64,000 bases of DNA, from positions 24,634-88,633 of the forward strand of contig DAHXNY010000003.1 in the NCBI GenBank assembly GCA_027365175.1, given 5' to 3'. The notes under the pieces are model-generated. The model was not told the DNA's origin. It did not search any database and worked only from the letters and a program-made list of their open reading frames with translations. A program made the translations under genes and the position numbers. This DNA comes from Candidatus Micrarchaeota archaeon. GTDB taxonomy: Archaea; Micrarchaeota; Micrarchaeia; Micrarchaeales; CABMGC01. Below are positions 4,296 through 45,078 of the stretch, in pieces. The first letter of the stretch is position 1, and the number at the start of each line of letters is the position of its first letter.

Positions 4296-4393
4296 CGAAT
4301 TTCCTCGTGTAATTCCGCTAATGGGATTTATAGAAAGCTTAATAAAAATGAGCAAGTATTATTAGTTCAGTTTTAAGGCGACTGGTGAAAAAA

Positions 4394-4762
4394 ATGGGAG
4401 TTTTTGATAAGCTGGGCCAGACATTCGGCTCACAGAGCAAGGACATGGATCTCGGAGACTACATGAGCGCTGTAGAGATGGAAGATGTAGACGTAATGCA
4501 CGAACCTGCAGATATGTACATCAAGCCTGTATCTATATCAAGCGAGGATGAAGTCAAGTCTGTTGAGGACGAAGTTTCCAAGAAGAACATAATACTTCTG
4601 GATATAACGGAGCTTAACAAGCGACCTACGACAAGGAGCAATGTAATATCAGAGCTGAAGAGATTCACTGCAAAGATAAACGGGGACATAGGGCAGATAG
4701 ACCAGACAAGGATACTGCTGACCCCTGCAAAGATAAAGATAATAAAGAGAAAGAAGCAGTAA
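4394..4762 (+). CDS. sepF: Archaeal cell division protein SepF
   Basis: Amphipathic MGVFDKL start; NIILLDI, INGDIGQI, ILLTP core; ATG at 4394 follows GGTGA. Confidence 0.85.
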   Translation: MGVFDKLGQTFGSQSKDMDLGDYMSAVEMEDVDVMHEPADMYIKPVSISSEDEVKSVEDEVSKKNIILLDITELNKRPTTRSNVISELKRFTAKINGDIGQIDQTRILLTPAKIKIIKRKKQ

Positions 4763-5452
4763 TCACTTCTTCAGGGCGGTTATAAGCGCGTGCACCTCAG
4801 TGCCGCTTGGCTGCGAAGCGCGTACCATTCTCCGGAATACTGCGCTCACAGCCTTTTTGTTTCTTATCCTTTTCTTTTCAAGAGAGCTATCGAAGATTCT
4901 GAACAGGTACTCCAGCTCCTTCTTCTCCACCTTCCTGTTTGATATGTCCCTGTACAAGGGGACGAAGTCCTGTTTTGTGAACTCATAGAGTATCAGGGCA
5001 AGGGCGTGAGAGATGTTTAGCACAGGATATCTCTTAGAAGTGCCTATGTACATCACCATGTCGCATCCTTCCACCTCCTCTGCGCTTAGCCCGGTGTCAT
5101 CCCTCCCTATCAGCACGCCTATTACCGCTTTTTCATCGAGCTTCTTCAGCTTTGCAGCGGAGTCCTGAAGGAGAAGGATGCGCTTGAAGGTGCGGTTTGC
5201 CTTCTCCCATATCCCTGTCGTCCCTATCACCAGGGAGCACTCCTTTGTAGCCTCTTCTATGCTATCGTATACCTTTGCATTCTTCAGCAGATGGCTTGCG
5301 TGCTTTGAGAACATTATCGCCTTGCTTCCCGTAATCTTTGCCCTTGGCTTTACGAAGTATAGCTTGTTTATCCCGAAGTTCATCGACACTCTTGCTATAT
5401 AACCGATGTTTATCTGGTACTTCGGCTCTACGAGTATTATCTTGAAGCGCAT
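4763..5452 (-). CDS. trmJ: SPOUT RNA methyltransferase, TrmJ/LasT family
   Basis: ILVEPKYQINIGYIAR, IGRDDTGLS, YPVLNISHA; likely start MRFKIIL. Confidence 0.85.
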   Translation of the reverse strand: MRFKIILVEPKYQINIGYIARVSMNFGINKLYFVKPRAKITGSKAIMFSKHASHLLKNAKVYDSIEEATKECSLVIGTTGIWEKANRTFKRILLLQDSAAKLKKLDEKAVIGVLIGRDDTGLSAEEVEGCDMVMYIGTSKRYPVLNISHALALILYEFTKQDFVPLYRDISNRKVEKKELEYLFRIFDSSLEKKRIRNKKAVSAVFRRMVRASQPSGTEVHALITALKK

Positions 5453-5457
5453 CTTTA

Positions 5458-6225
5458 TCAGTGGATTAGGATTATACTTAGTATGGCAAGGACGCCTATG
5501 GAGTTGACAAGGATATGGGCGAGCATGCTCGGATACAATGAATCGGATTCGCTGAACACATATCCTGCAATCAGTCCGAAGAGCGTCGCAGCCACTACCT
5601 CTATTGCAAAGGTTGAGTCGTAGCTCGCATGAAGCAGCCCGAAGACCACTGCACTTGCCACTATGCCTGCCCATACGGGTCTGTAGCTCCTTTTAAGCAG
5701 TGATGAGCCTATGGCCCCTGTGCCTATGTTTATCCTTTTTATGAGGAAGCCCCTGAAGAATATCTCCTCGTTTATAGGCTCTATGACTGCGACGAATATG
5801 TAGAACCATAACGGAGCTCCTGTGAAGAGCACGCCGGTGTTTGTGTTTATGGCGGTATTCAGGAAGTTACCAAAGGCGCCTACCGCAACCTCAAGCATAA
5901 GTATTATGATGAATAATAGCATTCCTATCCACAGCACATTTACTGATATCCTGTCCTTTGACAGTCCCAGGAAGCCCAGCGTCTCCTTCAGGCTCTCCCT
6001 CTTGTAGAGCTTCCCGTATAGGAATACGGCTACAGACAGGGATAGCAATGAGGCCACTTCAAGGATAAATGTCAGGGTATTGTTTGATATCAGGCCGACC
6101 GAGTATGCACCGTATGAGATAAGGCTGAGCACGCTGATGGATACGATATACAGCGCAAAATATATTGCTATTGAGAAGATAGAACGTCCTGATTCCTGCC
6201 GCAGGTTATATCCCAAAAGGCGCAC
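5458..6225 (-). CDS. CPBP (CAAX/Abi) family intramembrane metalloprotease
   Basis: EEIFFRG, FGLLH, AHILVN motifs and multiple TM segments. Confidence 0.9.
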   Translation of the reverse strand: MRLLGYNLRQESGRSIFSIAIYFALYIVSISVLSLISYGAYSVGLISNNTLTFILEVASLLSLSVAVFLYGKLYKRESLKETLGFLGLSKDRISVNVLWIGMLLFIIILMLEVAVGAFGNFLNTAINTNTGVLFTGAPLWFYIFVAVIEPINEEIFFRGFLIKRINIGTGAIGSSLLKRSYRPVWAGIVASAVVFGLLHASYDSTFAIEVVAATLFGLIAGYVFSESDSLYPSMLAHILVNSIGVLAILSIILIH

Positions 6226-6363
6226 CTATTTGCCCTTGAACTCGGTGTATCTGCACTTGCCGCACGCATATCTGTCCTTGTGGTCGGCCATGCGGGCACC
6301 GCACTTGGGGCAGTACTTCGCCCCCGGTTTGTATACAGCTGCCTTCTTTCCCTCTTTTGCCAT
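6226..6363 (-). CDS. rps27ae: 30S ribosomal protein S27ae (eS31), 45 aa, absent from ORF track
   Basis: [45 protein letters not shown]; directly follows S24e as in the conserved order. Confidence 0.92.
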
Positions 6364-6379
6364 GTTAATCATCTAAAAA

Positions 6380-6733
6380 TCATTCAGCCCCTTCTGCCTT
6401 TTCAGCAGGCTTGGCTTCTTCTGCCGCTTCCTGCTTTGCAGGCGCTGCTCCTTTTGCAAGTGCCTCCTTCTTCTTTGCAGAGAGCTTGAATGCCCCTCTC
6501 TTCTTTGCCTCAGGAGTAAGGTATGCATATGCGGTTATTGTGCATCTCTTCTGTCCGTAATCCTGGTCGACGCTCACTATCTCTACCATCTCAGGATCAA
6601 GATTCTTCTTCTTGCATAGCTCCTCCTTGACCTGCTGCCGTGTGGGCGTTTTGTCCTTGAAGGTTGCTTCTGCCTTTATCTCATTCCTTTCAAACAGCTT
6701 GTTTTCGTGCTCTTTCTCTATTTTCAATTCCAT
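6380..6733 (-). CDS. rps24e: 30S ribosomal protein S24e
   Basis: ENKLFERNEI...TPTR...YG motifs; Ala/Lys/Glu-rich tail. Confidence 0.88.
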   Translation of the reverse strand: MELKIEKEHENKLFERNEIKAEATFKDKTPTRQQVKEELCKKKNLDPEMVEIVSVDQDYGQKRCTITAYAYLTPEAKKRGAFKLSAKKKEALAKGAAPAKQEAAEEAKPAEKAEGAE

Positions 6734-7138
6734 CTAACCGCCCATTACTCTTGATATAGCTCTTCTTCCTGACGCTTCCATTATCTCTATCTCCGCCCCT
6801 GCCTTGACGCTGCCCTTCATGTCCTCAGGTATCGGCAGGTCGAAGGTCTCATAGCTCTCCAGGTCCATAACCTGCGCAGTTGTGTCTGTAACTGATACAA
6901 TCTGTCCTTTCTTCTTTGTTATTACAGGTACCTCTATGTCTCCGGAGCTCGGCTTCAGAAGGGTCTTCTTCTGCCCATCGAAGATGCCTATGCCCGTTAT
7001 TCGCATCTTTGCAGCTCCGTGCTTTCCAGGTGCAGAGGTCTCTATGTCTACCACCCTGCACGCTATACCGTCTATCATGACGAAGCGACCTATCTTTAGG
7101 TCCTTCATAGTTCCATAAGTTATTTCGTCTGTCACCAA
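6734..7138 (-). CDS. eif5a: Translation factor aIF5A
   Basis: SAPGKHGAAK hypusine loop. Confidence 0.96.
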   Translation of the reverse strand: MVTDEITYGTMKDLKIGRFVMIDGIACRVVDIETSAPGKHGAAKMRITGIGIFDGQKKTLLKPSSGDIEVPVITKKKGQIVSVTDTTAQVMDLESYETFDLPIPEDMKGSVKAGAEIEIMEASGRRAISRVMGG

Positions 7139-7219
7139 ACCAGCTTCTCAAAAGTTTTACTGATAAAACAAGTAAACCTGTTTTCCATAGGAGTATTAAC
7201 TAAGAAAAATTTATAAATA
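7094..7219 (+). repeat. Left copy of perfect 126-bp direct repeat (aIF5A 5' codons plus upstream region)
   Basis: Identical to 10318-10443 (CTTTAGGTCCTTCATAG...AATTTATAAATA). Confidence 0.97.
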
Positions 7220-7309
7220 GGGATACATGAACGCATGTGAGAGCCAGAAACTTATAAGTATCATGTAAAACAATTATGTAATGCAGATTTAATAACCAAG
7301 TATGATAAA

Positions 7310-8020
7310 ATGACAAAGTATAAAACAGGAGAAGTTCTTGGAATAATTCCTACGCGAGGAGGTTCTAAAGGGTTGGAAAACAAGAATGTCAGATTTCTAG
7401 ACGGAAAACCGTTAATAGCTTATACTATCGAAGCGGCTCGGGATTGCAAGGATATTGCAAAATTGGTCGTATCTACAGATAACAATACGATAGAGGAAGT
7501 TTCAAAGAAATATAATGTTGATGTATTTAGACATCCTCATGAGTTATCGTTAGATGGCAAGCCCACATTTCCTGTTATACAATATGTTGTAAAGAATTTA
7601 GTTGAGTCCGGAGAAAAGTTTGAACTTGTAGCTGTCATGCGTGCAACTACTCCTCTTAGGACATCTGAAGATATATCCAAGGCAATAACATTGCTTCGCA
7701 AAACTGGAGCAGATTCTGTAGTAAGCGTGGTTGCCGACCCAACTGCACATCCTATAAGACTTAAAAACCTTGATAGAGATTTAAGAGTATCATCGTTACA
7801 GAGTGGTGAAGAGGATTCTCCGATAATCCGTCAGAATCTCCCAGTAGTTTATAGACGTAATGGGGGAGTTTATGTAACAAGAGTTTCCATTATTTTAAAT
7901 GGCAGTTTATTTGGCAAAGACTCTAGAGGATATGTAATGCCTAAAGAGAGATCGGTTAATATTAATGATGAGGTAGATTTTGTATTAGCTGATGCGTTGT
8001 TGAAATCGCATCACAAATAA
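7310..8020 (+). CDS. Acylneuraminate (NeuA/CMAS-type) cytidylyltransferase
   Basis: IIPTRGGSKGLENKN, GKPLIAYTI, VSTD, TTPLR, INDEVDF. Confidence 0.92.
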   Translation: MTKYKTGEVLGIIPTRGGSKGLENKNVRFLDGKPLIAYTIEAARDCKDIAKLVVSTDNNTIEEVSKKYNVDVFRHPHELSLDGKPTFPVIQYVVKNLVESGEKFELVAVMRATTPLRTSEDISKAITLLRKTGADSVVSVVADPTAHPIRLKNLDRDLRVSSLQSGEEDSPIIRQNLPVVYRRNGGVYVTRVSIILNGSLFGKDSRGYVMPKERSVNINDEVDFVLADALLKSHHK

Positions 8021-8049
8021 GTTAATATTAGTAAAGCATAGGCAGCAAC

Positions 8050-8634
8050 ATGGTAGTAAAAATATTATTGCTTGATATTGGAGGGATTTTCTTTTACCCG
8101 AATTGGCGAATAAAAGGCATAAGAGAAGTTAGCGATAAGCTGCATGTTGGCTTAAATGATTTCAAAGCAGCTTTGGACGCGTATAAAAAACCTTTTTATA
8201 CAGGAAATATGACCGAGGATATATATTGGACAAACATACTTGAAAGGCTAAATGTCTACAGTGTGAAGCCAGATGACCTTGTGAATTTATATAGAGATTA
8301 TGTAAAACCAATTCCGGAAGCTATAAACCTGCTGCCCAAATTGTCTTCGAGATACAAATTGATATCTTTTAATAATTCCTCGAGAGAATGGATGGATTAT
8401 AGAATAAATGTTGCTTCTTTGGATAAATATTTTTCAGAGTTTTTCACGTCAGGATATCTTGGCTATACAAAATCAGATAACAGGATGTATGAAAAGGCTA
8501 TACTATCTTATAATAAAGATGAATTATTTTATTTGGATGATAATGAAGAGTATATATCAAAAGCAAAAACAATATGCGGAATAAATGGTAAAGTGTATTT
8601 GAATAACACTGATCTCCTGCAATTAATAGCGTAA
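8050..8634 (+). CDS. HAD-superfamily phosphatase (YihX-like)
   Basis: LLDIGGIF motif I, GYTK motif III, YLDDN motif IV. Confidence 0.85.
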   Translation: MVVKILLLDIGGIFFYPNWRIKGIREVSDKLHVGLNDFKAALDAYKKPFYTGNMTEDIYWTNILERLNVYSVKPDDLVNLYRDYVKPIPEAINLLPKLSSRYKLISFNNSSREWMDYRINVASLDKYFSEFFTSGYLGYTKSDNRMYEKAILSYNKDELFYLDDNEEYISKAKTICGINGKVYLNNTDLLQLIA

Positions 8635-10152
8635 AACTGGTGGAAATGGGGGTCTTCTTGAATTGCCTTTTACTGATAGTTCATTGACAATTTGTGCAGA
8701 TATGCCAGGTGTGCGGAAAGCAGTAAAGAATCCGTTTGCCACATCAGGCGAAAGTTCCAGAGAATGAAATAGTACTGATGCCCCGAAGTCAGTATTTGCA
8801 CCTAAGCTTGGTCTTGTTTTTCTTATGGCTTTTGCATATTCAATTAGTCTATGTATAGTTTCATATTTTTCTGGAAATCCATCCATACTGGCTTTTATAT
8901 ATAAATCTACTCGTGGGTCTTTGCCTAACAGTCGGGTAGGATTTTCTGGATTAGTTTTGTGAATTCCATGTCCAAAACCATAAATTACTTTGCCGGGTTT
9001 AACTAAATTTCTGATGTATGCTTCTCTGTCACTTTTCCTTTCCATTGTCAGATATTCTTTCGTTTGTTTCATACATTCGGTTACTGCTCCAGCGTGGAGT
9101 TTGCCACTCCGTATATTAAAACTGGCGATAAGGGCTCTTGGGAAGGTAGTTCTCACTGATGAAGCTAATTGTGCAGTCAATTCTCCAGAATTTAGACCAT
9201 GTGTTGAGTGTGCTAATGCTACTTTCCTAACTGCAGAAAGTTGCCTCTCTGTAACTTTCTTACCTGCTTGATGAAGAAACATCTTAATTGGATCGATAGT
9301 TTCGTTCAGGTTCACTAGTTTAGATGGATTGTTAAAATATGCTACTGTTGAAATGATGAAGCCCGTAAAATAATACGCGTCCATTATGACCTTTCTTCTA
9401 CTTAGTAAGTTTTCTCCAGCAATTGCATTGGTGTTATATTCATATTTACTGAGACTCTCATACTTGTTTAAAATTTGTCTATTTAAAAGCTGTTGTGTAA
9501 TAAGATCTACAATCTCCCAATTTTCTTGCTTTGCACGAGAGATTAGTTCCCTTTCTCTTTCTTCTAAAATTGCCCCTCGCTGGAAAGAAACTTCTGCATC
9601 GGATTTAAACCTCTCGTCTTTTTCTAAGAAGAGCTTCAGAGTAGCAGAAAAATAATTATTTTGGCTTGAAAATCTCTTTAATGACATTCCTGCGATTGTT
9701 ATGCGTCCATCTAGTATATGTGATTGTCCTGAATGTGGATAACTCGGCGATCTGAATTTAAAGATTTTTAATACGTCATTAACACCGTCTCTTGCAGAAC
9801 TTACCTCATTGATAACTGATGCGAAGACGTGTTCTTTTCCTAACTCGTTAAGCCTTGCGTTTATGGGTTTTAGAAGCGCCGTAGTTCTTTCTGAAAATAC
9901 TTTGAGAGAGTGATTGCTGTTAAATAAGTTTATAAAGTCCGTTTTTAACTTAGCCATTTTTGGATCTGACAGTACCCCGGTGTCATTTAATTTTGAGGCA
10001 ATATTATTATAGGAATTTAAAACTACATGCTTCCAGATTATCTCCTCTGGATCATGGTAGACATCAGGCTTTCTTTGCAAAGCTAAAAAAGGCTGTGCTC
10101 CTGTAGAATTTTCTGAGTTATTAGTTTTTATCCGACATATTTTGTTTCGCAT
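8623..10152 (-). CDS. Divergent citrate-synthase-fold protein with long unrecognised N-terminal region
   Basis: HSTHGLNS, LHAGA, YGFGH, DPR, NTDF, FRTPG motifs in the C-terminal half. Confidence 0.8.
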   Translation of the reverse strand: MRNKICRIKTNNSENSTGAQPFLALQRKPDVYHDPEEIIWKHVVLNSYNNIASKLNDTGVLSDPKMAKLKTDFINLFNSNHSLKVFSERTTALLKPINARLNELGKEHVFASVINEVSSARDGVNDVLKIFKFRSPSYPHSGQSHILDGRITIAGMSLKRFSSQNNYFSATLKLFLEKDERFKSDAEVSFQRGAILEERERELISRAKQENWEIVDLITQQLLNRQILNKYESLSKYEYNTNAIAGENLLSRRKVIMDAYYFTGFIISTVAYFNNPSKLVNLNETIDPIKMFLHQAGKKVTERQLSAVRKVALAHSTHGLNSGELTAQLASSVRTTFPRALIASFNIRSGKLHAGAVTECMKQTKEYLTMERKSDREAYIRNLVKPGKVIYGFGHGIHKTNPENPTRLLGKDPRVDLYIKASMDGFPEKYETIHRLIEYAKAIRKTRPSLGANTDFGASVLFHSLELSPDVANGFFTAFRTPGISAQIVNELSVKGNSRRPPFPPVLRY

Positions 10153-10317
10153 TTTAACAATTATAGTAACTTGTAGAGAAATATAAGACCTTGCCGCAAG
10201 ATTTATAAATACGAATTGTGTCTCTGATCTTCAGTATCGTTTGTTAATGCACTTAGAATAAAGTATAAAGAGACGCTAATAACAGCAGAACTATATTAAA
10301 CAAACTAATCGGCCTAC

Positions 10318-10443
10318 CTTTAGGTCCTTCATAGTTCCATAAGTTATTTCGTCTGTCACCAAACCAGCTTCTCAAAAGTTTTACTGATAAAACAAGTAAA
10401 CCTGTTTTCCATAGGAGTATTAACTAAGAAAAATTTATAAATA
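10318..10443 (+). repeat. Right copy of 126-bp direct repeat; contains a truncated aIF5A 5' fragment
   Basis: Minus strand reads MVTDEITYGTMKDLKVGRLVCLI-stop. Confidence 0.97.
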
Positions 10444-10447
10444 CAGT

Positions 10448-10472
10448 TAACAGGCCCTATCTGGGCCTGTTA
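10448..10472 (-). terminator. Hairpin downstream of the ftsZ pair
   Basis: TAACAGGCCC-tatct-GGGCCTGTTA, perfect 10-bp stem. Confidence 0.65.
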
Positions 10473-10490
10473 CGTTAAAATTAAATAATT

Positions 10491-11510
10491 TCAGTAGATG
10501 CTCTGGAGCGCCTCTAAGCGCATAGGCATAGCATTTGCATTGCTCTTGCGTTCGCCGAACTTCGCCTTCACTCCTGTAATTATTGACATTACCCTTATCT
10601 CCTCTCCGAGCTCAGGAAGCATCCTTGCGCCGAAGATGACGTTCGCATCTCCTGCAACGCCTTCTGTAACGCCGTTTGCTATCTCCGTAGCCTCGCTTAT
10701 GGTCAGGTTTGCACCTCCGGTTATCTGTATGAGCGCTCCCTTTGCACCTTCATTCTCCACTGATAGCAGAGGATGTGCAAGAGTTGACTTTACAGCCTGT
10801 TCGACTCTGCCAGGGCCCTTTCCTGAGCCGAGGCTTATCACTGCCGTGCCTGTGTTCCTGACAACCGTGTTCAGATCTGCGAAGTCCAGGTTTATCAGGC
10901 TTGGGAAGTATATCGTGTCAGATATTCCCTTTACGGCATTGCCGGTTATATTGTCAACAAACTCGAAGGCCTTGTCCATAGGAAGGTTTGGCACATATGA
11001 TAGGAGCTTGTCGTTCTCCACCACTATCGTGCAGTCCGCTTCCTTGTTCAGCCTGTCTATGCCCCACTCTGCCTTTACCTTTCTGCTTCTCTCAAGTGCA
11101 AATGGGTATGTCACAGTTGCTATCACTGTTGCGCCGCACTCTCTTGCTATGTGAGCCACTATTGGAGCTGAACCTGTTCCTGTTCCTCCTCCCATGCCAG
11201 CAGCTACGAAGACCAGGCTGTAGCCGTCTAGGGCCTGCCTTATCTCCTCCTTGCTTACCTCTGCGCATTTCTCAGCAACTTCTGGGAAACCTCCGGCTCC
11301 GAGTCCATTGGTTATGCTCTTTCCTATGAGCAGCTTCTTGTCGGCCTTGATTATGTTCAGATGTGCTATATCCGTGTTTATGGCAATCTTGTCGGCGCTC
11401 TGCATGCCGTATCTTGATAGTCTGTTTACAAGGTTGCTACCCTGCCCACCGCAGCCTACTACCGCTATCTTCGGTTTATAGGCATCATAGTCGAACTGCT
11501 CGTTTCCCAT
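10491..11510 (-). CDS. ftsZ: Cell division protein FtsZ (FtsZ2-like)
   Basis: [28 protein letters not shown]. Confidence 0.95.
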   Translation of the reverse strand: MGNEQFDYDAYKPKIAVVGCGGQGSNLVNRLSRYGMQSADKIAINTDIAHLNIIKADKKLLIGKSITNGLGAGGFPEVAEKCAEVSKEEIRQALDGYSLVFVAAGMGGGTGTGSAPIVAHIARECGATVIATVTYPFALERSRKVKAEWGIDRLNKEADCTIVVENDKLLSYVPNLPMDKAFEFVDNITGNAVKGISDTIYFPSLINLDFADLNTVVRNTGTAVISLGSGKGPGRVEQAVKSTLAHPLLSVENEGAKGALIQITGGANLTISEATEIANGVTEGVAGDANVIFGARMLPELGEEIRVMSIITGVKAKFGERKSNANAMPMRLEALQSIY

Positions 11511-11544
11511 TCTTGCACCCACTTATAATAAATATAAAGGGATC

Positions 11545-12594
11545 TCAAATGAGATCCAAGTCATACTTTGCAGGCTTTTCGTCGCTGTTGAACTTCCCGG
11601 CTATGCTTGCGCCCTTTACTCCTGTGACTATTGCCACTATCTCTATCTGGCCCTCGTAGCCTGGGATTATTCTTGCGCCCCACTTTATGTTTGCCTTAGG
11701 GTCCATGCGCTCCGTGATTATTTCACCTGCGTGTATTGCGTCTCCGAGGCTCAGGTCCGATGCTCCTGATATGTGTATCAGTGCCCCCTTTGCATTCTCG
11801 AAGTCAACATCAAGCAGCTTGTTCTTTATCACGGCCTCTGCAGCTGCGGTAACCTTCTCGTTGCCCTTTCCTACCCCTACGGATATGAATCCAACGTCTC
11901 CGCTGCCCATGATTGACCTTACATCAGCAAAGTCTATGTTGATCAGGCTCGGCTGGGTTATCGTCCATACGAGTCCTCCTATGGCCTTTGCCAGTATGTC
12001 ATCTGCTACTGCAAATGCCTCATTCATTGGCAGGTTAGGAACCAGCTTCACCAGCCTGTTGTTGTCCAGGATTATGACGCTGTCGCTGAACTTCCTCAGC
12101 TTCTGAATACCCTCTTCTGCCTTTACCTTCCTTACCCTCTCAAGATCAAATGGGTATGTTACCATCGCGACTACTATAGCACCCTGTTCCTTTGCTATCT
12201 GAGCCACTACCGGCATCGCACCTGTTCCCGTTCCTCCTCCCATACCTGCGCACAGGAAGACCAGTTGTGCACCGTTTATTACCTCTTCTATTGCCTGCCT
12301 GTCAGCCTCTGCTGCCTTTGCTCCGACTTCAGGAGTTCCTCCGGCTCCGAGACCTCTTGTCAGGCTCTTTCCGATGAGGACCTTCTTTATCCGGTCATCA
12401 AGCATCTTGAAGTGCTGAACGTCCGTGTTAATTGCTACAAGGTCTGTGCCCTTAACACCGCTCTTCAGCAGTCTTTGTGCTGTGTTGTTGCCACCCCCGC
12501 CCACTCCTATGGTTACTATCTTTATCTGGGGTGTAGAGTTACTGTCCATCTCCTCGCTTTTATTCGCAAGAAACTCGCTAGAGAAATCTACCAT
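11545..12594 (-). CDS. ftsZ: Cell division protein FtsZ (FtsZ2-like)
   Basis: [31 protein letters not shown]. Confidence 0.96.
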
Positions 12595-12799
12595 GCGATC
12601 GCCAGTTTATATAAACTACTAAATACGTTTAAATGTCTTTTGTATGGGAGTCAGTAATGGAACGGCTTATACTTTGATAAAAATCATATACTTAAATAAA
12701 TTATTATTAGTGGAAGATAAGGATTTTTACGCAGAATCCGTACCGTAATGGGAATGAAAAACAAATTTTACCGACGTTAATTGCAATTTGGGATTAGTA

Positions 12800-14560
12800 T
12801 CAGGCTGATAGCTTGGACTTCCGCTGTATGCCGAACATCTCTATTACCTCTTCTGTCGTCGTGGCATCGGAAGCGCTCTTGTCCTGCCTTATCCCATCGC
12901 TCACGAGCCTTGGGAATCTCAGGGCATATCCTATTCCGTCCTTTACCCCGCAGGTGTGCATGTTCGACCTTGTTATCTCGTCTGCCCTTACAGTTACTAC
13001 GTACTTCGGCTCGACCCAGAAGTCAGGCTCCACCACAGCGTTTACCCTTGCAGGCCTGTGCTTTGTCTTTATCTCATCAAGATCCTTCTTCAGCGATTTC
13101 ATCTGCACCTCGCTGAATCCTGTGCCTATTCGCGTTATGGTTTCAAAGGCATCCTCTTTGTCATTGTAAACGCCTGCTAGGAGACCGCCGAATTTGAACT
13201 CGGCGCGCAGCCCTTTTCCTAGGAAGTATCCCAGTATCACGAGGTCAAGCGTGTCTGACAGTTCTCCCTTGTAGCTCCTCTTCAGCTTTATCCAGGAGAA
13301 CTTCCTCGCGCCTGCCACATAGCTTGAGCCGAGGTCCTTTGCCATTATGCCCTCGAGACCGTCCTCTATTACCGTATTGAAGTACTTGTCTATCGTCTTG
13401 GGATCGTCAGTGACTATCCTGTCGGAGAGTCGTATCATGCGCCTTTTCTTCAGCACGGATTCAAGCAGGTTCCTCCTCTCCGAGTAGGGCTTTGCCATCG
13501 TATCCCTGCCGTTAAGATACATTATGTCGAATGAGAAGAGGGTCAGGGGCATCTCCTTTGACATCTCCTCTACTCCATGCTTCCTCTTCCTCTGTATGGT
13601 CTCCTGGAAAGGGAGGAACTGGTCCGTGGCTTCGTTGTATCCTATTGCCTCTCCCTCTATTATTGCAGAGTCTGCCGATATCTCATCGAGTGCGGCGTCG
13701 ACTATTTCCGGGAACATGGGAGTAAGCACCTCCAGGTTCCTCGAGTATATCTCAACCTTCTTCCTCTTCCTATCCACATGTATCTGCTGCCTTAATCCGT
13801 CGTACTTTGATTCTATGGCGCACCTTCCATGGGTCTTTTCCAGTATCTGCTCCGCAGTAGGAAGCCTCTCGGCAAGTGCGGGCCTTATAGGACTGAAGAG
13901 CTGCACCTCTATGCGCTCTATCCCTTTTATCCCATTCTCGGCCATGATCTCACCTATCCTCCCGAGGTCGCTGCAGATGTTGTATGCGTTCTCCAGCACA
14001 GGCTTTGACTCCCTGCTTCCGGTGAATGCCTTGGAAAGCGCTTCGAGAATGGTTGCATCGCCAAGGCCCAGCCTGAGCCTTCCGAGGGCGAATCTGGTAA
14101 CGTATCTTGCTTCGAGAGGAGAGGAGGCTGAAAGAATCTCCATCAGCATCTTTATCTTCGTGTCCTGGCTGCCCTGCCCTCCGGTCTTCGCTATCTTGTG
14201 CATCGATTCGAAGACATCGTTTACTGTAAAGGACTTGGAACTTATCCTCTTCAGCTTTGACTTAGAACAGAAATCCTCTGCCACTGCCCCAAGGTCTCCT
14301 GATTTCTTGTATGCCTGTATGACGGAATCTTTTGAATAGCCGGTAGCTGCAGCTATGGCCTGCTCGGCGAAGCTCTCAGCCAGCCCTATCACTACGCCCT
14401 CGAATGAAGGACTGAGAACTCCCTGCGTTATGTATATCAGGTGCCGAATCTCTCCGGGGGAGGATTTTGACAAAAGCTCCGAGAGCGTGTCTATCATCTC
14501 CAGCCTTGAGCTTGTGCCCTCGAGCTTCTCGTAATAAGCGGCAGTGTCCTTGAACAGCAT
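12800..14560 (-). CDS. lig: ATP-dependent DNA ligase
   Basis: ESKYDGLR, EGIMAK, WIKLK, ALRFPR; likely start MLFKDTA at 14560. Confidence 0.96.
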   Translation of the reverse strand: MLFKDTAAYYEKLEGTSSRLEMIDTLSELLSKSSPGEIRHLIYITQGVLSPSFEGVVIGLAESFAEQAIAAATGYSKDSVIQAYKKSGDLGAVAEDFCSKSKLKRISSKSFTVNDVFESMHKIAKTGGQGSQDTKIKMLMEILSASSPLEARYVTRFALGRLRLGLGDATILEALSKAFTGSRESKPVLENAYNICSDLGRIGEIMAENGIKGIERIEVQLFSPIRPALAERLPTAEQILEKTHGRCAIESKYDGLRQQIHVDRKRKKVEIYSRNLEVLTPMFPEIVDAALDEISADSAIIEGEAIGYNEATDQFLPFQETIQRKRKHGVEEMSKEMPLTLFSFDIMYLNGRDTMAKPYSERRNLLESVLKKRRMIRLSDRIVTDDPKTIDKYFNTVIEDGLEGIMAKDLGSSYVAGARKFSWIKLKRSYKGELSDTLDLVILGYFLGKGLRAEFKFGGLLAGVYNDKEDAFETITRIGTGFSEVQMKSLKKDLDEIKTKHRPARVNAVVEPDFWVEPKYVVTVRADEITRSNMHTCGVKDGIGYALRFPRLVSDGIRQDKSASDATTTEEVIEMFGIQRKSKLSA

Positions 14561-14963: not shown

Positions 14964-16106
14964 TTACTCTTCGTTTATTATCTCATATATCTTATTGGCG
15001 AAGAAGCCCATGTTGCGCTCCTTCTTCTCTGGCACAAGTATGCCCTGCTTGACAAGCCTGTCCACTGCGCGTTTTGCAGTAGGGTATGTCGCGTTGATCG
15101 CATTCCTTGCATCTGCTATGGTTATGAATGGGTTCTTGAAGAGCTCATTCAGCACTATTCTTGATGACTCTGAGGATTTTGAAGGGCCGAGCTTTTTCAT
15201 GCACGCTTCCCTGTACTCGGAGAGCTTTGAAGCGGTGCGCACGGCCTTCTTGGCCTGGAAGTGCATAGCCTTAAGGAAGAACTTTATCCATGCCAGATAG
15301 TCGCCTGTCTTGCTTACGTGCAGTATCGTGTCGTAGTAGGATGCCCTGTCCCTCTCGAAGTACTCGCTCATGCATAGGCTGGGAAGCGAGAGGAGCCTGC
15401 TCTTCTGCAGATACACGGATATGAGCGCTCTTCCGGTCCTTCCGTTTGCATGCTCGAAGGGCCTTATGGCCTCGAACTGGTAGTGCATAATTGCTATCTG
15501 GACTATCGGATGCACCGACTCATACTCCTGCATATAGTAAAGCGCGTTCTCCAGCAATGGCACTATTCTCTCCGGAGGCGGGGGCACGTATCTTGCTATA
15601 GCGGCCGGGGTATCTGGAGAACCAAGCCAGTTCTGCCTATTCCTTATTATCATATCCTTTTCATTTGTGCTGCCCGTAAGTGCCTTGTGGGCTCCGATTA
15701 CCGTATTCATGCTTATGTCCCCGCGGCTTATCGCCGGTATGCAGCTCCTCAGAGCCTCTATATGGCCAATGGCCTCTTTTGCAGCCTTGGGATCCTTTAT
15801 CGAGCGTTTTCCCCGCTCATACCTGAAGATATTGTCCAGGGTCTCCCGGTTTCCATGCAGCCTTGCATTCTCCAGCGCCTCCTTTCTTGTCTGCAGTTCT
15901 GCAAATTCCGGGAATTCAGAGGATATTGCCTCGAGCTTCCCCAACTCGAAGCTTGTCTTTGCCAGAAGAGTTGTCGCCTCATCGTCAAATTTGATCTGCA
16001 CAGGGAGCAGCCTCGGTACAAAGGCGTAGTAGTTGTTGTGTGCATTCTGTACGAATATGAGCTCTCCTGCCATACCATTGAAATCGCTGGGATTCACCAC
16101 AGGCAC
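14964..16106 (-). CDS. Fic family protein with C-terminal HTH and a degenerate active site
   Basis: IRNRQNWLG, HYQFEAIRPFEHANGRTGR versus canonical HPFxDGNGR. Confidence 0.88.
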   Translation of the reverse strand: MPVVNPSDFNGMAGELIFVQNAHNNYYAFVPRLLPVQIKFDDEATTLLAKTSFELGKLEAISSEFPEFAELQTRKEALENARLHGNRETLDNIFRYERGKRSIKDPKAAKEAIGHIEALRSCIPAISRGDISMNTVIGAHKALTGSTNEKDMIIRNRQNWLGSPDTPAAIARYVPPPPERIVPLLENALYYMQEYESVHPIVQIAIMHYQFEAIRPFEHANGRTGRALISVYLQKSRLLSLPSLCMSEYFERDRASYYDTILHVSKTGDYLAWIKFFLKAMHFQAKKAVRTASKLSEYREACMKKLGPSKSSESSRIVLNELFKNPFITIADARNAINATYPTAKRAVDRLVKQGILVPEKKERNMGFFANKIYEIINEE

Positions 16107-16575
16107 CGATTATTATATTAAAAGAATATATTTAAACCTTTACTAAATCAATATTTATCACAATATTAATCTGCAATAACGTATTGGAACTAAATATAAA
16201 CACAATAAACATACTATAACTGACTACATACGATTATTATAGATAAATTAAGTTTTTATTAAATTAATCTCATTTATAATTAATATAATGTAATTTTATT
16301 TGTTTTTACCCGCTTTTGTAGATTTTTTACTTAATATATTATAAATATATTGAAGATAATCGCATATATCACATTATTTCGATCTGAAGAAGCAGTGTTT
16401 CAATTGTTCGAATATAATTAAAGAAATATTGTTTATAATTAATATAAATTAATAATCAACATTTGATTGATATTTTGATAGTTTATGTTAAATTATATGT
16501 GTATTAATTTAATATTACTCTGATACGCAGCTCGCACCTGGCTGTGTGGGACATGAGGTCTCTGGTGCGAATTAG

Positions 16576-16643
16576 GTGACATCCTCCCACCCCTGAAGGG
16601 AGCCATCTAAAGAGGGTGTGGGATTTCCCGCTCACGTTGTTAA
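16576..16643 (-). mobile_element. Solo IS200/IS605-type right-end remnant
   Basis: Minus strand GTGAGCGGGAAATCCCACACCCT...AGGGGTGGGAGGATGTCAC; hairpin resembles the tnpB element ends at 60325 and 61580. Confidence 0.6.
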
Positions 16644-16841
16644 TAGCAAATATATTAATTATATTGCTGATTTTTGTAGATATATAGCACTTTTTGATTT
16701 ATTATATTAAATAATTAATCATTATATTTAATACAAACAATGAATCTAATTGAATTGCAGAGAACATAGAAGCAGGAGACATAAACGTAAAGATATAGCA
16801 TTGGGATTGGCAGTTTAGGATGGCTTATGAAGCGCGCCTGA

Positions 16842-19229
16842 TCAGACAATCCCTGTGTTTATGCTTATGTTCATCTCAGTAGTGGCTCCTGAAGAGACGT
16901 TTACTGATTTTGGAATGTTGCGCAGACAGCTTATGTAGTGGCAATTGAGCATGCTTACCGAGTAAGAACCCGCAGCCACCTGCTGTGAGTATGTACCATT
17001 TGCGCCAAGGGGGATTGTGTAATTGTAGGCGTTGTTAGTTGATATGAGTTCCAGTTTGAGATTTGAATAGAGTGTATTAAGGTCTATACTGCCTGCACAG
17101 GTATTGCTGATAGATTCTACAGGGCATAATGGGCCTATCACCACCCTGCCCTGAATTATCCCGAAGCCGGTCTGATTCTGCGGAATTGTAGTCACAGTAG
17201 TCGTAGTAGATGTCAACGTATCGTTTATGCTGCTGTTAGACTGTTCGGTTGTATTCCGGGATACCGAGTATGTGGTCTTTATTGACAGCTGCCCGTAATA
17301 CTGATAGCCAGGGGCCTTTATAGTGAGGACCGCAGCTCTTATCTTCTGGCCTGCCGTGCATACGAAGCAGTGTATGCTTCCTGAAGAGCAGACAGGGCAC
17401 CTCCCAGGAATATACTCCATCACATATGCCGTCCCTAGGAGAGTAAATCCGGGAGTAAGTATGCTTATGTTCTTAAGCTGATAAGCAGAATAGTAATCGT
17501 TATACGAACCTGAGAGCAACGGCAGGGTGTAGTTAGCAGTTCCGTTTATCGTTGATGTAAAGCCCTGCAAAGAGATATTGTATGAGGAATTGCCTGCTAG
17601 CACCTGCTCGTTCACCATGCTCACTCCGACAAGCTTTGAGGTATAGTTGCTTATGCTGCCTTCATCAGAAGCAGTGTAATTCGCATTTGCAATTCCTGAA
17701 TGCTGCTGTCCGGCACCGTTCACCTTTATGCTGTAATTCTGGCTAGGTATGAGAAGTATCCTTGTTACCCCTCTGAAGAATGGCAGTGAATCTGCCGCAT
17801 ATGGCAGTGGGCCTATCCCAAGAGTGCCGTTGAAGCGGAGGTCTGCTGAAGCGCCGGGCTTGACAGACAGGCCTGTGAAGCTTCTGCACCCTATGAATGC
17901 ACCAATCTCATCGCCGTGGGACTCTTCGCAGTTTGGCACATAATTGAATATCGGGAGTGAGAGTGTCCCGTTGTCAAGCACGATGAAATTAAGGTAATTG
18001 TTGAACTTGTTGACAAATGCTCCGGCAGCATTTGCTTCAAGCTCGCTCTGGTTCCTGGATTCTGCGTTTGCAGATATTGATATCGCACTCTTGCCTATGC
18101 ACATTATCCCGACGCATGTTTTTGCTGTTGTTCCTGCATTAGAATTATCAGATATGGCTGATGTATAGCCCTGATAGCCAAGCCTTATCTCTTCCATTAA
18201 GCCATTAAGCTGCATATTTGTCAGATTGACAGTAGTGTTGCCGGTGTTCTTTACCTCTATAGACATCATGGTCAAATTGCCTGAAGAGGCCAGAGTGGCA
18301 TTAGTTATTATTATGCTGCTGTTTGATCTTATCCTGCGGACTGTGTCAGGGCTTATCCTTTCTACGTAGCCTATGCTCCTGGTGCTTGCCGCTTCTGATC
18401 TGCCTATGAATATGGCCTTGACATTGGGAACCATCACGAATATACTCTCATTGTTCTGCGAATATATACTGACTATTGTAGGGTTCATGTTTATCAGGGC
18501 ACCTCCTATAGAGGAGTTGGAGCTTGAGTTTAGCTGCGCTTCCACGTAGCCCTGAGGCACAGTCACGTTGTATGTGGTGTTATCTATAGTTATGTTTGCA
18601 GCTGTTATGTTGAGCCTTAGGGCCTTTATCATACTGTAGTTCTTCACATTCAGGACGGCTATTGTCTTTGTAACATTGGTCAGGTTGAGAAGGTCGGCAG
18701 TGCCACTGGCGTTGAAGTACTCGAATGCAGAGGAATTTGCATAGAATAGGCCTAATGAAGAGTATCTTATCGTCAGTGATGAGGTTCCTGGAGGCACAAG
18801 AGGAGGATCCGTAAGCTGCACTACGAAGTTGCCCTGCAGGGAGGAGTTTGAATACTGCGAATTGAATGAAGGAGGAGTTGTAGAGTAGTTTCCTGGATAG
18901 ACTGGCGCCCTGCCATTGAATAGAAATATGCCAATAGCTGCTATCGCTATTATTACAAGTATGCCTACTGCGAAAGCCCTTACCTTTGCAACATTGTAAC
19001 CGTTGTCCTCAAGGCGCTTTTCGAATCCATTGTTGTATTCGTAGTACTTCCACTTCCTGCTATAAGGATTCTCTATCTCCTTTATGGCGCCTATCTTCAG
19101 GAGCTCTTTTATGTGCTGGTTTGTAGTAGACTGGCCCAGACCCAGCTTTTCGGATATCTGAGTCATTGTCATAGGCTTCTCTTTTACCAGTCCTATTATC
19201 TTCTTCTTGCTTTCAAAGAGCTTGCTCAT
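16842..19229 (-). CDS. Membrane-anchored protein: N-terminal wHTH, single TM, large Asn/Ser/Thr-rich extracellular region (DUF4382-like start)
   Basis: PMTMTQISEKLGLGQSTTNQHIKEL HTH; TM AVGILVIIAIAAIGIFL; VQLTDPP; many NxS/T sequons. Confidence 0.75.
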   Translation of the reverse strand: MSKLFESKKKIIGLVKEKPMTMTQISEKLGLGQSTTNQHIKELLKIGAIKEIENPYSRKWKYYEYNNGFEKRLEDNGYNVAKVRAFAVGILVIIAIAAIGIFLFNGRAPVYPGNYSTTPPSFNSQYSNSSLQGNFVVQLTDPPLVPPGTSSLTIRYSSLGLFYANSSAFEYFNASGTADLLNLTNVTKTIAVLNVKNYSMIKALRLNITAANITIDNTTYNVTVPQGYVEAQLNSSSNSSIGGALINMNPTIVSIYSQNNESIFVMVPNVKAIFIGRSEAASTRSIGYVERISPDTVRRIRSNSSIIITNATLASSGNLTMMSIEVKNTGNTTVNLTNMQLNGLMEEIRLGYQGYTSAISDNSNAGTTAKTCVGIMCIGKSAISISANAESRNQSELEANAAGAFVNKFNNYLNFIVLDNGTLSLPIFNYVPNCEESHGDEIGAFIGCRSFTGLSVKPGASADLRFNGTLGIGPLPYAADSLPFFRGVTRILLIPSQNYSIKVNGAGQQHSGIANANYTASDEGSISNYTSKLVGVSMVNEQVLAGNSSYNISLQGFTSTINGTANYTLPLLSGSYNDYYSAYQLKNISILTPGFTLLGTAYVMEYIPGRCPVCSSGSIHCFVCTAGQKIRAAVLTIKAPGYQYYGQLSIKTTYSVSRNTTEQSNSSINDTLTSTTTTVTTIPQNQTGFGIIQGRVVIGPLCPVESISNTCAGSIDLNTLYSNLKLELISTNNAYNYTIPLGANGTYSQQVAAGSYSVSMLNCHYISCLRNIPKSVNVSSGATTEMNISINTGIV

Positions 19230-24885: not shown

Positions 24886-24887
24886 AA

Positions 24888-26132: not shown

Positions 26133-26133
26133 T

Positions 26134-44939: not shown

Positions 44940-45078
44940 GCCAACCAGCAGATGATGTTTAATGATAATAATTCAAAGAGTAAGTTTAATAATCTGTATT
45001 CATCTGAGACGCAGGTTGGCATATAACGCAGCAAGTCAATCTTTTTATTGTTTTAGAGCCAACATTTATCGTAATTGG

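Follow-up and report, generated by a model that had tools for sequence, protein, structure and literature searches.

Among the described systems closest to the locus reported here are the pathways to CMP-activated nonulosonates and CMP-Kdo, in which a phosphoenolpyruvate (PEP)-dependent synthase forms a carbon–carbon bond, a HAD-family hydrolase removes phosphate, and a cytidylyltransferase attaches CMP. Analysis of a 64,000-nucleotide stretch of Candidatus Micrarchaeota DNA (the window) reveals a cassette of comparable make-up, with a NeuA/LegF-type cytidylyltransferase (CT), a HAD hydrolase and a C–C-forming 'synthase' encoded side by side. There are several differences. First, the synthase role appears to fall to a CoA-thioester Claisen enzyme with the citrate synthase (CS) fold, not to a PEP-dependent enzyme. 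Second, the HAD is a YihX/3cnh-like type IA protein with an Asp-x-Gly motif, not a KdsC-type phosphatase. Third, the CT falls under the cut-offs of the PseF and KdsB models. Finally, NeuB is absent from four of the five genomes carrying the trio. Two other described systems are pertinent: cis-mobilisable islets, which are flanked by att-like direct repeats and have no recombinase of their own, and ATP-citrate lyase, which is built from ATP-grasp and CS-fold parts. The features of the locus are as follows.

7080..7219, unstranded: left copy of a 140-nt direct repeat, ending in TTTATAAATA (repeat search D1; alignment to the empty site in congener G002)
7220..10303, unstranded: inserted cassette, 3084 nt (GC content; no matches in relatives)
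7251..7260, + strand: TATA-like element CTTATAAGTA, 50–59 nt 5′ of the CT start, candidate CT–HAD promoter
7310..8020, + strand: NeuA/LegF-type cytidylyltransferase (CT), 236 aa, member of a 22-cluster clade (PF02348; PDB profile matches)
8050..8634, + strand: HAD-IA hydrolase, 194 aa (PDB profile matches to solved HADs)
8623..10152, − strand: citrate-synthase-fold enzyme (CSL), 509 aa (PF00285; predicted structure)
10201..10210, − strand: putative TATA-like element ATTTATAAAT, about 50–58 nt 5′ of the CSL start, in repeat family D2
10304..10443, unstranded: right-hand copy of the same 140-nt repeat, directed into the CSL gene (repeat search D1; junction alignment)

The three open reading frames lie exactly where an earlier note on this DNA had placed them, and the convergent HAD and CSL genes end in a 12-nt overlap (8623–8634); the two TATA-like elements are readings of the sequence alone. 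An Rfam scan of positions 6300–11000 at E≤0.1 gave no matches, PADLOC-DB 2.0 returned no family for CT, HAD or CSL at E≤0.01, and we found no description of the cassette in the literature.

The CSL protein matches Pfam PF00285 at 84.9 bits (cut-off 27) across residues 193–499 of 509. Its predicted structure (pLDDT 87.2, pTM 0.83) finds citrate synthase fold structures in Foldseek at target-normalised TM-scores of 0.74–0.80, and comparison with citrate/methylcitrate synthases (VIA) gives Z-scores of 33–34 with an rmsd of about 3 Å over 330–349 residues (two of the matches at Z 34.4 and 34.2, with 3.0–3.2 Å over 335–349 residues), the alignment spanning model residues ~32–500. The fold is thus shared over nearly the whole protein with citrate/2-methylcitrate synthases (PF00285; 1a59, 3hwk, 1vgm and 6s87), from which CSL differs in having only 14–18% identity, a four-helix N-terminal extension (~30–135) with invariant residues of its own (Y32, E37, W40, K41 and N78), further insertions, among them one of 10 residues in the active-site loop between GFGH.IHK and DPR, and an invariant S-V-R at 332–334. 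The N-terminal half, which the earlier note could not recognise, consequently proves to contain no foreign domain: the structural alignment covers ~32–500 and the ordinary CS of the host aligns to CSL residues 147–502, leaving the extension and insertions. An ESM Atlas search with residues 26–240 was uninformative, returning citrate synthase clusters only, at scores of at most 0.87.

The catalytic-type residues are retained. The motifs LHAGA, GFGH, NTDF and DPR to which the earlier note had pointed are present in the translation, and their columns are invariant across 23 family members; so are all the columns that match the CS motifs DHE, LHGGA, GFGHRVYK, DPR, NTDF and SRVLG in alignments to 1vgm and to the host's own CS. 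Residues H318, H353, H395, R414, D455 and R480 are invariant in the 23 sequences and R500 is present in at least 90% of them. By analogy to CS, we take H318, H395 and D455 to be the catalytic His/His/Asp, and R414, R480 and R500 to be substrate-binding arginines. The window copy departs from the family at one of 77 conserved columns, where other members depart at 0–5, with one outlier at 18.

CSL is nonetheless a clade of its own and not an ordinary (methyl)citrate synthase. The family comprises 35 clusters among 5.8 billion, and an exhaustive search of 1.84 billion recovers 22 representatives at E≤3.4e-24, below which there is a sharp gap to 7.8e-15 and weaker, occupied by a short fragment and then by ordinary-length citrate synthases that match just CSL residues ~280–495. 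In a quick tree the family is split off on a long stem with SH-aLRT support of 100. All NCBIfam CS models score far under their cut-offs (best 60.9 bits against 332), as does the citryl-CoA lyase model NF004864 (38.2 against 261). Against the PDB, the CSL profile matches 1vgm at 2.7e-20 and the citryl-CoA lyase 6hxp at 1.9e-14. Members are labelled 'citrate/2-methylcitrate synthase' in the source databases; one homologue, P0024, comes from Parashewanella. CSL further differs from ordinary synthases in that it is never found alone, an activating enzyme adjoining it in every locus with enough flanking sequence. The host has pyruvate dehydrogenase for acetyl-CoA and its own CS (411 bits) near an aconitase, and CSL is therefore an extra enzyme; that it stands in for a missing host citrate synthase is ruled out. 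An own CS is also present in three of the four cassette-free congeners searched.

The CT matches Pfam PF02348 at 80 bits (cut-off 22.6), remaining below the cut-offs of the PseF model (118.8 against 205.7) and of the KdsB models (23.6–44.3 against 155–281); its profile matches in the PDB include 6ifd (3.7e-36), 1eyr and 1qwj. It belongs to a clade of 22 clusters, bounded at 56% identity or more, whose nearest relatives outside bear NeuA/LegF-type source names, and within which sequences from different domains of life are 57–71% identical. The CTP-binding motif P.RGGSKG..KN is present at the N-terminus, with R16, G17, G18, S19, K20, K25 and N26 common at 90% or more with the 97 nearest ordinary CTs; altogether 30 invariant positions are common to the clade and these relatives, and clade-specific changes are few. 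At the C-terminal Asp-x-Asp position, which we take to be a metal site, the clade carries Asn-x-Asn (N217 in 20 of 21 sequences, N219 in 21 of 21). An alignment to 6ifd first suggested a clade-specific loss of the site, an idea we rejected since Asn is common there in ordinary relatives (67 of 97 at 217, 29 of 97 at 219) and the motif thus varies within the CT family at large. A gain of basic residues suited to a polycarboxylate was likewise rejected, no position combining a Lys/Arg frequency of 90% or more in the clade with one of 15% or less among ordinary CTs.

The HAD is recognised weakly by Pfam, below cut-off (PF00702, 24.6 against 26.4; PF13419, 22.4 against 23.8), and its best NCBIfam matches, all weak, are pyrimidine 5′-nucleotidases. 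A profile of four orthologues matches the solved HADs 3cnh (E 1.7e-26) and YihX (2.1e-5). Motif I (LDIGG), with D9, and residues K141 and D163-D164 are invariant in all four orthologues; so is a Gly where the second Asp is usual, two residues past the nucleophile and presumably the general acid/base, and 3cnh likewise reads DIGG. The earlier note had recognised in the HAD and the CT the last two enzymes of the nonulosonate and Kdo routes beside a synthase-like gene: both are indeed there, though the HAD is of YihX/3cnh type IA with Asp-x-Gly, and not of the KdsC or NeuA-C type.

The association of the three genes extends well beyond the window. Archaea, CPR bacteria and a gammaproteobacterial MAG together provide 11 distinct loci in which CT and HAD lie convergent to a CSL gene or CSL remnant (the window, L001, L002, L007, L032, L034, L035, L047, L053, L095 and L108), and in P0015 the CT and CSL are fused into one protein whose CT domain is 66% identical to that of the window. 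Each of the three families is rare, and their restricted distributions coincide: CSL has 35 clusters, CT 22 and HAD 15, the 15 relatives of HAD being all that were found at E≤1e-5, and the longest-contig sizes agree across the three family searches. Chance falls far short of explaining this association, and the three genes form a single module that is linked in function and moves horizontally; the earlier note's own alternative, an ordinary enzyme whose homologues never neighbour neuA or HAD genes, does not hold because CSL homologues adjoin the same CT and HAD genes. In four of the 11 loci with CT and HAD (Type A) the CSL gene is disrupted while CT and HAD remain open reading frames, from which it follows that CT and HAD may not need CSL, or that the module is often dispensable. 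The CT of L007 has a 21-residue gap. No CSL relative was found in viral contigs.

In sister CSL clades other partners occupy the place of CT and HAD. An ATP-grasp protein of the amino-acid-ligase/PylC type does so in 19 loci, seven of which also encode a DSP phosphatase matching the 'polymorphic toxin system' phosphatase models PF22785 and PF22784, and in L038 an acyl-CoA-ligase-like enzyme is accompanied by an MFS pump. Judged by their families, these partners are putative alternative carboxylate- or acyl-activating chemistries. Phosphatase and activating enzyme vary together: CT goes with HAD, ATP-grasp with DSP, and the acyl-CoA ligase with no phosphatase. This co-variation fits a phosphatase acting after activation as well as before it. 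Several contexts are those of glycan loci: in L049 and L050, CSL and ATP-grasp have a DegT aminotransferase on one side and genes for GNAT, sulfotransferase and GT56 on the other, Wzz and a flippase being encoded upstream, and L055 adjoins a GT2+GT25+GT10 protein. More distant CTs in L093 and L094 lie in nonulosonate-type clusters, L094 with NeuB.

The best explanation, which we hold tentatively as not quite an even chance, is a transferable pathway in which a citrate-like hydroxy acid is made, dephosphorylated and activated with CMP. Here we infer the substrates, the order of the steps, the product and its use, while linkage, mobility, fold and catalytic-residue conservation are observed. CSL would condense an acyl-CoA with a 2-oxo acid to give a tertiary hydroxy-(poly)carboxylic acid, citrate-like and probably not citrate; the YihX/3cnh-type HAD would strip phosphate from a precursor or intermediate; and CT would link CMP to the hydroxyl beside a carboxylate, a local chemistry equal to that at C2 of ulosonic acids. 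The CMP-activated acid might decorate a surface glycan or protein, or be a small molecule. The earlier note's idea of a CMP-acid pathway stands in part, with the unusual CSL, the gene linkage and the missing NeuB on its side; it is weakened by a HAD that is not of KdsC type and by the lack of matches to three CMP-ulosonate transferase families in the five trio genomes. NeuB (PF03102) has no match in the host, whose genome is 89% complete (control 9 of 14), or in three of the four other trio genomes, and is present in the fourth (G403). A phosphonopyruvate acceptor, on the FrbC-like logic set out in passages of PMC8942020, was rejected, PEP mutase (PF13714) occurring in none of the five trio genomes (control 11 of 14). 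The CMP-ulosonate transferase families PF04413, PF01973 and PF05159 (GT30, Maf/MptE-like, KpsC/S) each have no match in the five trio genomes, which are MAGs, and the cassette has no transferase gene. By our own chemical reasoning, moreover, CMP esterified to a non-anomeric tertiary alcohol would donate poorly in glycosyl-type transfer, which argues against this pathway. So do the missing transferases, the Gly in place of the second Asp of HAD, the phosphatase co-variation, the absence of a basic-residue gain in the CT clade and the disruption of CSL in four of the 11 loci; the gene linkage, the retained CS-type catalytic residues, the other activating enzymes of sister clades and the glycan-locus contexts speak for it.

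If the pathway is real, it would be a new route to a nucleotide-activated acid, with Claisen condensation of a CoA thioester replacing PEP-aldol chemistry, and CSL would found a functionally new branch within the citrate synthase superfamily; automatic annotation currently calls its members 'citrate/2-methylcitrate synthase'. A bolder version, which we regard as doubtful, is that ultra-small DPANN and CPR symbionts trade a self-contained three-gene kit in which a CS-fold enzyme replaces the NeuB/KdsA-type synthase, opening a cheap CoA-thioester route to a CMP-activated citrate-like 'pseudo-ulosonic' acid that would remodel the cell surface, with sister kits attaching an acid of this kind by ATP-grasp amide ligation or exporting it after acyl-CoA activation. 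Surface chemistry in such organisms probably governs attachment to the host. As a compact, complete unit that passes between archaea and bacteria of strongly reduced genome, the cassette offers a practicable way, through three genes that E. coli can express, into the poorly known surface and small-molecule biology of DPANN/CPR organisms.

The same genes could serve conflict. A nucleotide-burning module, in which the CSL acid is loaded with NMP or phosphate by CT (by ATP-grasp in sister clades) and stripped again by the phosphatase, would impose a futile CTP/ATP drain or yield an antimetabolite, in defence or in host–symbiont conflict. We consider this unlikely. It would suit the pairing of phosphatase type with activating enzyme, the toxin-system models matched by DSP, the weak 5′-nucleotidase resemblance of HAD, the repeated inactivation of CSL, and a cassette that is mobile, patchy and perhaps in only part of the population; MazEF (L034), RES with a STAND NTPase (L003), Fic (L007 and the window) and transposases are neighbours in some loci. 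The silence of PADLOC on all three proteins speaks against it, as do the lack of CSL in viral contigs, a cassette without sensor or regulator, the occurrence of CSL with ATP-grasp within plain polysaccharide loci, and the surroundings of the cassettes in the window and in L002, which are housekeeping genes and no defence island. It is rather unlikely, too, that the acid activated by CT is a conventional ulosonic one, scavenged or synthesised elsewhere, while CSL and HAD perform another linked step such as acyl modification and the CSL product is never CMP-linked. As NeuA/LegF-type enzymes go, the CT is fairly ordinary, with its 30 shared invariant positions and few clade-specific changes, one trio genome does have NeuB, and CT and HAD stay open where CSL is lost; yet the other four genomes have no NeuB match, the CT–CSL fusion argues for consecutive or coupled steps, and in all 11 loci the CT clade occurs only beside a CSL gene or remnant. 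That the cassette is passenger DNA with no current function for the host, a decaying islet still intact here, is quite improbable. CSL disruption in four of 11 loci, the low sequencing depth of the cassette (below), and the lack of a recombinase and of any obvious user of the product would agree with it, whereas the three window ORFs are full length, CSL is off at a single conserved column, within the family range, CT identity is maintained across domains, and putative TATA-like elements precede both transcription units.

A catabolic system resembling ATP-citrate lyase seems very improbable. Here the partner enzyme would activate citrate or an analogue and CSL would act as a citryl-CoA lyase, releasing acetyl-CoA and oxaloacetate; CSL with ATP-grasp does recall the composition of that enzyme, and there are the weak citryl-CoA lyase matches (NF004864 and 6hxp). 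CSL is, however, closer to full citrate synthases (1vgm) and retains the N-terminal portion of the fold, aligning with CS from ~32 onward, whereas the solved citryl-CoA lyase that it matches is only 268 residues long; the ATP-grasp is not of the succinyl-CoA-synthetase type; the polysaccharide-locus contexts argue for biosynthesis; and the NeuA-type CT would have to form an acyl-CMP, for which we know of no precedent. Finally, it is scarcely credible that CSL is an ordinary citrate/2-methylcitrate synthase, transferred by chance together with neuA and HAD genes or filling a gap in the host. The database labels and the retained catalytic-type residues are what one would expect of such an enzyme; the NCBIfam scores, the separate long-stemmed clade, the conserved synteny with a CT–CSL fusion, and the host's own CS, shared with most of the congeners searched, are not.

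The cassette has recently been inserted upstream of the aIF5A gene (6734–7138, minus strand) in this archaeon of reduced genome. Its GC content is 35.6%, against 49% in both 5-kb flanks, and it lies between direct repeats that are 97% identical and 3224 nt apart, each made up of the first 59 nt of the aIF5A gene plus 81 nt upstream. In six genomes of the same genus the flanks adjoin or overlap, which is the arrangement of an empty site, as the G002 junction alignment shows, and none of 30 relatives gives a match row within the cassette. Unitig depth in the cassette is 4.2–6.1, about one fifth of that in the flanks (21–24; run X1), which may mean that the cassette is confined to part of the population; the same run gave no contig joining 7219 to 10304, and nothing came from runs X2 and X3. 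The target repeats, the exact empty site in congeners and the deviant GC content are as in cis-mobilisable islets, but target duplications of transposons are usually far shorter than this repeat. There is no recombinase or transposase among the three genes between the repeats, and the window contains neither an integrase or transposase nor a tRNA target; a 140-nt target duplication without a recombinase is a mode of insertion worth understanding. No direct repeats of at least 25 nt surround the trio in L002, L032, L007 or L095, and repeats of 119 and 122 nt flank it in L001 and L034.

The cytidylyltransferase (CT), HAD (HAD) and citrate-synthase-like (CSL) genes occupy an insert of low GC content between two direct repeats.

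Features of the cassette and its borders in the window
7080-7219 and 10304-10443: 140-nt direct repeats bracketing the cassette, copies 97% identical
7220-10303: inserted cassette, 3084 nt, GC 0.356 vs 0.49 on either side
7310-8020, + strand: CT, intact ORF, 236 aa; PF02348 at 80 bits vs a cut-off of 22.6
8050-8634, + strand: HAD, intact ORF, 194 aa; Pfam HAD matches below threshold only
8623-10152, - strand: CSL, intact ORF, 509 aa; PF00285 (Citrate_synt) at 84.9 bits, residues 193-499

The three open reading frames lie where the earlier note had placed them, and the stops of HAD and CSL are convergent as it had said, overlapping by 12 nt. The flanks hold archaeal housekeeping genes (aIF5A, S24e, Hel308, SepF, two FtsZ copies and an ATP-dependent ligase), and the host genome, 89% complete, measures 795 kb, against 0.6-1.1 Mb in its relatives. 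The 140-nt repeat consists of the first 59 nt of aIF5A together with 81 nt upstream, and its end reads TTTATAAATA.

Close relatives show the unoccupied site. The six same-genus genomes searched all carry the two flanks on one contig and overlapping. The overlap is 140 nt in G001, G002 and G003, 145-147 nt in G004 and G006, and 63 nt in G005, which is more divergent than the others; the site in G002 aligns with the left repeat copy's left flank and the right copy's right flank. The cassette interior has no match in any of the 30 relatives. Of 401 genomes from the host's phylum searched by profile, only the host has the CSL family (E 1e-214), and the remaining 13 matches, which include the unpublished genome G046, are confined to the C-terminus and lie in frames about as long as an ordinary citrate synthase (377-415 aa). 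The target duplication is long, and no recombinase gene is present inside the cassette.

In X1, the single sequencing run with window DNA and probably the source sample, the mean word depth of unitigs, which is not a share of cells, is 21-24 in both flanks, 23.1 in the shared repeat and 4.2-6.1 in the four listed cassette unitigs, and the assembly graph breaks at the repeat copies. That the cassette is present in only a minority of the population is no more than hinted at, both for this property of word depth and because no X1 contig joins the two flanks directly.

Direct repeats that exactly bracket the three genes also occur at two other loci, L001 (119 nt) and L034 (122 nt); there are none of 25 nt or more around the trio in L002, L032, L007 and L095. 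In L002, from a 1.4-Mb gammaproteobacterial MAG, the trio (7965-10741) sits between thrS and infC, within the usually tight thrS-infC-rplT-pheS cluster. The two archaeal copies stand out sharply in GC from their surroundings (0.356 vs 0.49 and 0.385 vs 0.51); the contrast is moderate in L001 and small or missing at the other loci, a gradation that fits a recent arrival of the cassette in archaea. The duplicated upstream region and first 59 coding nt of aIF5A (10304-10443) are directed into the CSL gene, so that CSL could be transcribed both from a copied housekeeping promoter and from its own TATA-like element at 10201-10210. In archaea, aIF5A is the target modified by the deoxyhypusine-synthase family; the window cassette abuts aIF5A (6734-7138), and in L001 a deoxyhypusine-synthase-family gene (12495-13604) is some 1.7 kb away from the cassette, which is probably coincidence. 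In L034, whose contig is Paceibacterota-like, a MazE/MazF toxin-antitoxin pair (5324-6099) adjoins the CSL end of the cassette.

CSL belongs to a small family, with 35 clusters among 5.8 billion and, when 1.84 billion representatives are searched exhaustively, 22 at E<=3.4e-24, below which there is a sharp fall to citrate synthases of ordinary length aligned at residues ~280-495 only. Neighbourhoods were surveyed with local profiles in 33 sources (the window, L001-L007 and L032-L056). CSL is convergent with HAD and CT in 10 of these (9 distinct, L033 being the same contig as L001), is followed by a same-strand ATP-grasp gene in 19, and is without any of the four probed partner types in 4 (L038, L054, L055 and L056). 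Probing with CT and HAD added two loci, L095 (Micrarchaeota) and L108 (Patescibacteria), both with CT and HAD intact and with a CSL remnant just beyond the HAD stop or overlapping it. In L095 (region 7294-7538) the remnant is the last 25-39 codons, its break adjoining a minus-strand tRNA-Gln (7465-7538), and in L108 (region 6574-6744) it is about the last 50; these are independent cassettes that keep CT and HAD with only the tail of CSL.

A CSL gene or remnant thus accompanies CT and HAD at all 11 distinct loci. It is full length in six (the window, L001, L002, L032, L034 and L035), cut by the contig end in one (L053) and disrupted in four, by separation into two frames (L007), by a DDE transposase (L047) or by a 5′-side deletion (L095 and L108). 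A 735-aa protein, P0015, is a natural CT-CSL fusion with a CT domain 66% identical to that of the window. The CT clade comprises 22 clusters at >=56% identity, followed by a fall to 48% and, outside it, by the many ordinary proteins of NeuA/LegF type (3,339 at E<=1e-10); HAD has only 15 relatives. Members found in the separate CSL, CT and HAD searches are tied together by equal longest contigs (2994, 36901, 17131, 13467, 7158, 3201, 23578 and 6313). We consider the linkage and mobility of the trio to be very well supported.

The AlphaFold model of CSL, for which 23 sequences were used, has high confidence (pLDDT 87.2, pTM 0.83). The protein is predicted to have the citrate synthase fold throughout, since the Foldseek matches are all citrate or methylcitrate synthases (target-normalised TM 0.74-0.80), VIA-align superimposes model residues ~32-500 on the methylcitrate synthase 3hwk (Z 34.4, rmsd 3.0, 335 residues) and on 1a59 (Z 34.2, 349 residues), and the host's own 382-aa citrate synthase can be aligned over residues 147-502 with 22% identity. 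The motifs named in the earlier note (LHAGA, GFGH, NTDF and DPR) are found in the translation at invariant columns. Residues H318, H353, H395, R414, D455, R480 and R500 are invariant or nearly so and align to citrate synthase motifs, at columns that we take to be the catalytic His, His and Asp and the oxo-acid-binding Arg. There is also a conserved N-terminal extension of four helices (about 30-135; Y32, E37, W40, K41 and N78 invariant), together with additional insertions, an invariant S-V-R at 332-334 and, between GFGH.IHK and DPR, 10 inserted residues. The window copy differs at one of 77 highly conserved columns (R396G; family range 0-5, with one outlier at 18), and CSL falls far under every cut-off of the NCBIfam citrate synthase, methylcitrate synthase and citryl-CoA-lyase models.

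An ordinary citrate synthase (411 bits) is encoded in the host a few kb from an aconitase, as in three of four cassette-free congeners searched, and the window encodes a pyruvate dehydrogenase complex and SdhAB. Given this ordinary synthase and the dehydrogenase complex, CSL is an extra enzyme in a host able to supply acetyl-CoA. The host is well equipped metabolically for a genome of ~0.8 Mb, with a full pyruvate dehydrogenase complex, SdhA/SdhB, a fumarase/aspartase-type lyase, aconitase and ordinary citrate synthase (window 22832-27498 and 44962-49611; host contig C24 45850-51986).

The best solved relatives of CT are CMP-Neu5Ac synthetases (6ifd at 3.7e-36, 1eyr and 1qwj); KdsB is matched at 1e-7 only, and the PseF model scores 118.8 bits vs a cut-off of 205.7. 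When 21 clade members are compared with the 97 nearest ordinary CTs, D143 and E168 are gained, R75 is replaced by H, D123 by S/T and E98 by I, and a basic residue is lost at 153; there is no clade-specific gain of basic residues. A change of the Asp-x-Asp metal site to Asn-x-Asn is not specific to the clade, as N217 is present in 67 and N219 in 29 of the 97 ordinary CTs. HAD retains the nucleophilic Asp, K141 and D163-D164. Two residues past the nucleophile it has an invariant Gly (LDIGG), which is also present in its solved relative 3cnh; a profile of four orthologues matches 3cnh at 1.7e-26 and YihX glucose-1-phosphatase at 2.1e-5.

A quick maximum-likelihood tree of 53 CSL rows (SH-aLRT support only; interrupted or duplicate copies and short fragments left out) shows a monophyletic family in which the ATP-grasp type forms two clades and all CT+HAD rows fall within a third (support 97), which also includes the L038/P0024 pair, a divergent AT-rich group and the fusion P0015. 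The ATP-grasp belongs to the amino-acid-ligase/PylC type, and a DSP-type phosphatase (PF22785/PF22784) is present in 7 of the 19 ATP-grasp loci. In L038 the other partners are replaced by an ANL enzyme resembling acyl-CoA ligases and an MFS pump of the Bcr/CflA type. Where the flanks are long enough, a carboxylate- or acyl-activating enzyme is thus the constant companion of CSL, in some cases in plain glycan loci. In the low-GC polysaccharide locus of L049 (1859-13110; also L050), Wzz and a flippase lie upstream, and CSL and ATP-grasp are flanked by a DegT aminotransferase and by GNAT, a second PylC-like ATP-grasp, a sulfotransferase and GT56, an arrangement that suggests N-acylation of an amino sugar with a CSL-made acid. 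A 1211-aa GT2+GT25+GT10 protein adjoins CSL in L055.

Loci L003-L006, L041, L043, L051 and L052 share a Burkholderiales-type operon of CSL, amino-acid-ligase-type ATP-grasp and DSP phosphatase, in that order. The phosphatase is matched by models for 'polymorphic toxin' phosphatases and 'Swiss Army Knife' phosphatases. An additional ORF of 310 aa in L005 has no family match, and RES, STAND NTPase and transposase genes are close to some of these operons.

The earlier note had proposed an acyl-CoA condensation followed by dephosphorylation and CMP activation. We tentatively retain this, in amended form, as the most economical mechanism: CSL would catalyse a citrate synthase-type Claisen condensation giving a tertiary hydroxy acid, HAD would act as a phosphatase on a precursor or intermediate, and the NeuA/LegF-type CT would place CMP onto the hydroxyl adjacent to the carboxylate. 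HAD is unlike the KdsC type. That difference counts against this mechanism, as do the lack of a known user of a CMP-acid, the co-variation of phosphatase type with the activating enzyme, and the frequent loss of CSL where CT and HAD stay open reading frames; the same four points favour the main rival, that the trio is a conflict or NTP-burning module, which we nonetheless judge unlikely. PADLOC gave no match for the trio proteins, and no relative was found among viral contigs.

The five genomes with the trio are MAGs of 0.7-1.4 Mb (rounded). NeuB (PF03102) gave no hit in the host and was found in one of the other four (controls 9/14), while none of the five, the L002 genome included, gave a hit for the GT30 Kdo transferase (PF04413; controls 3/14), and none for PEP mutase (PF13714; 11/14), Maf/MptE-like (PF01973; 4/14) or KpsC/S (PF05159; 2/14) proteins. 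In the full-text literature searched, outside subscription journals and supplements, there is no description of the trio and nothing on CMP-citrate and like terms, and among the papers listed for citrate-synthase homologues with O-antigen, capsule or amino sugars none contains a citrate-synthase term; the part of PMC8942020 consulted concerns FrbC-type phosphonate pathways only.

An AglJ-like S-layer N-glycosyltransferase (58072-58977; 161.8 bits, under the 325-bit cut-off) indicates that the host probably glycosylates its surface proteins, which could be where a new acidic unit is placed. The tandem FtsZ paralogues (10491-11522 and 11545-12594), both over the TIGR00065 cut-off, and SepF (4385-4762), ~6 kb off, are the host's cell-division set. 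A 380-aa Fic-domain protein with a C-terminal wHTH (14964-16106) adjoins a second low-GC patch (~15500-17000, GC 0.32-0.38) and an 802-aa protein recognisable only by its N-terminal wHTH, and this may be another acquired segment.
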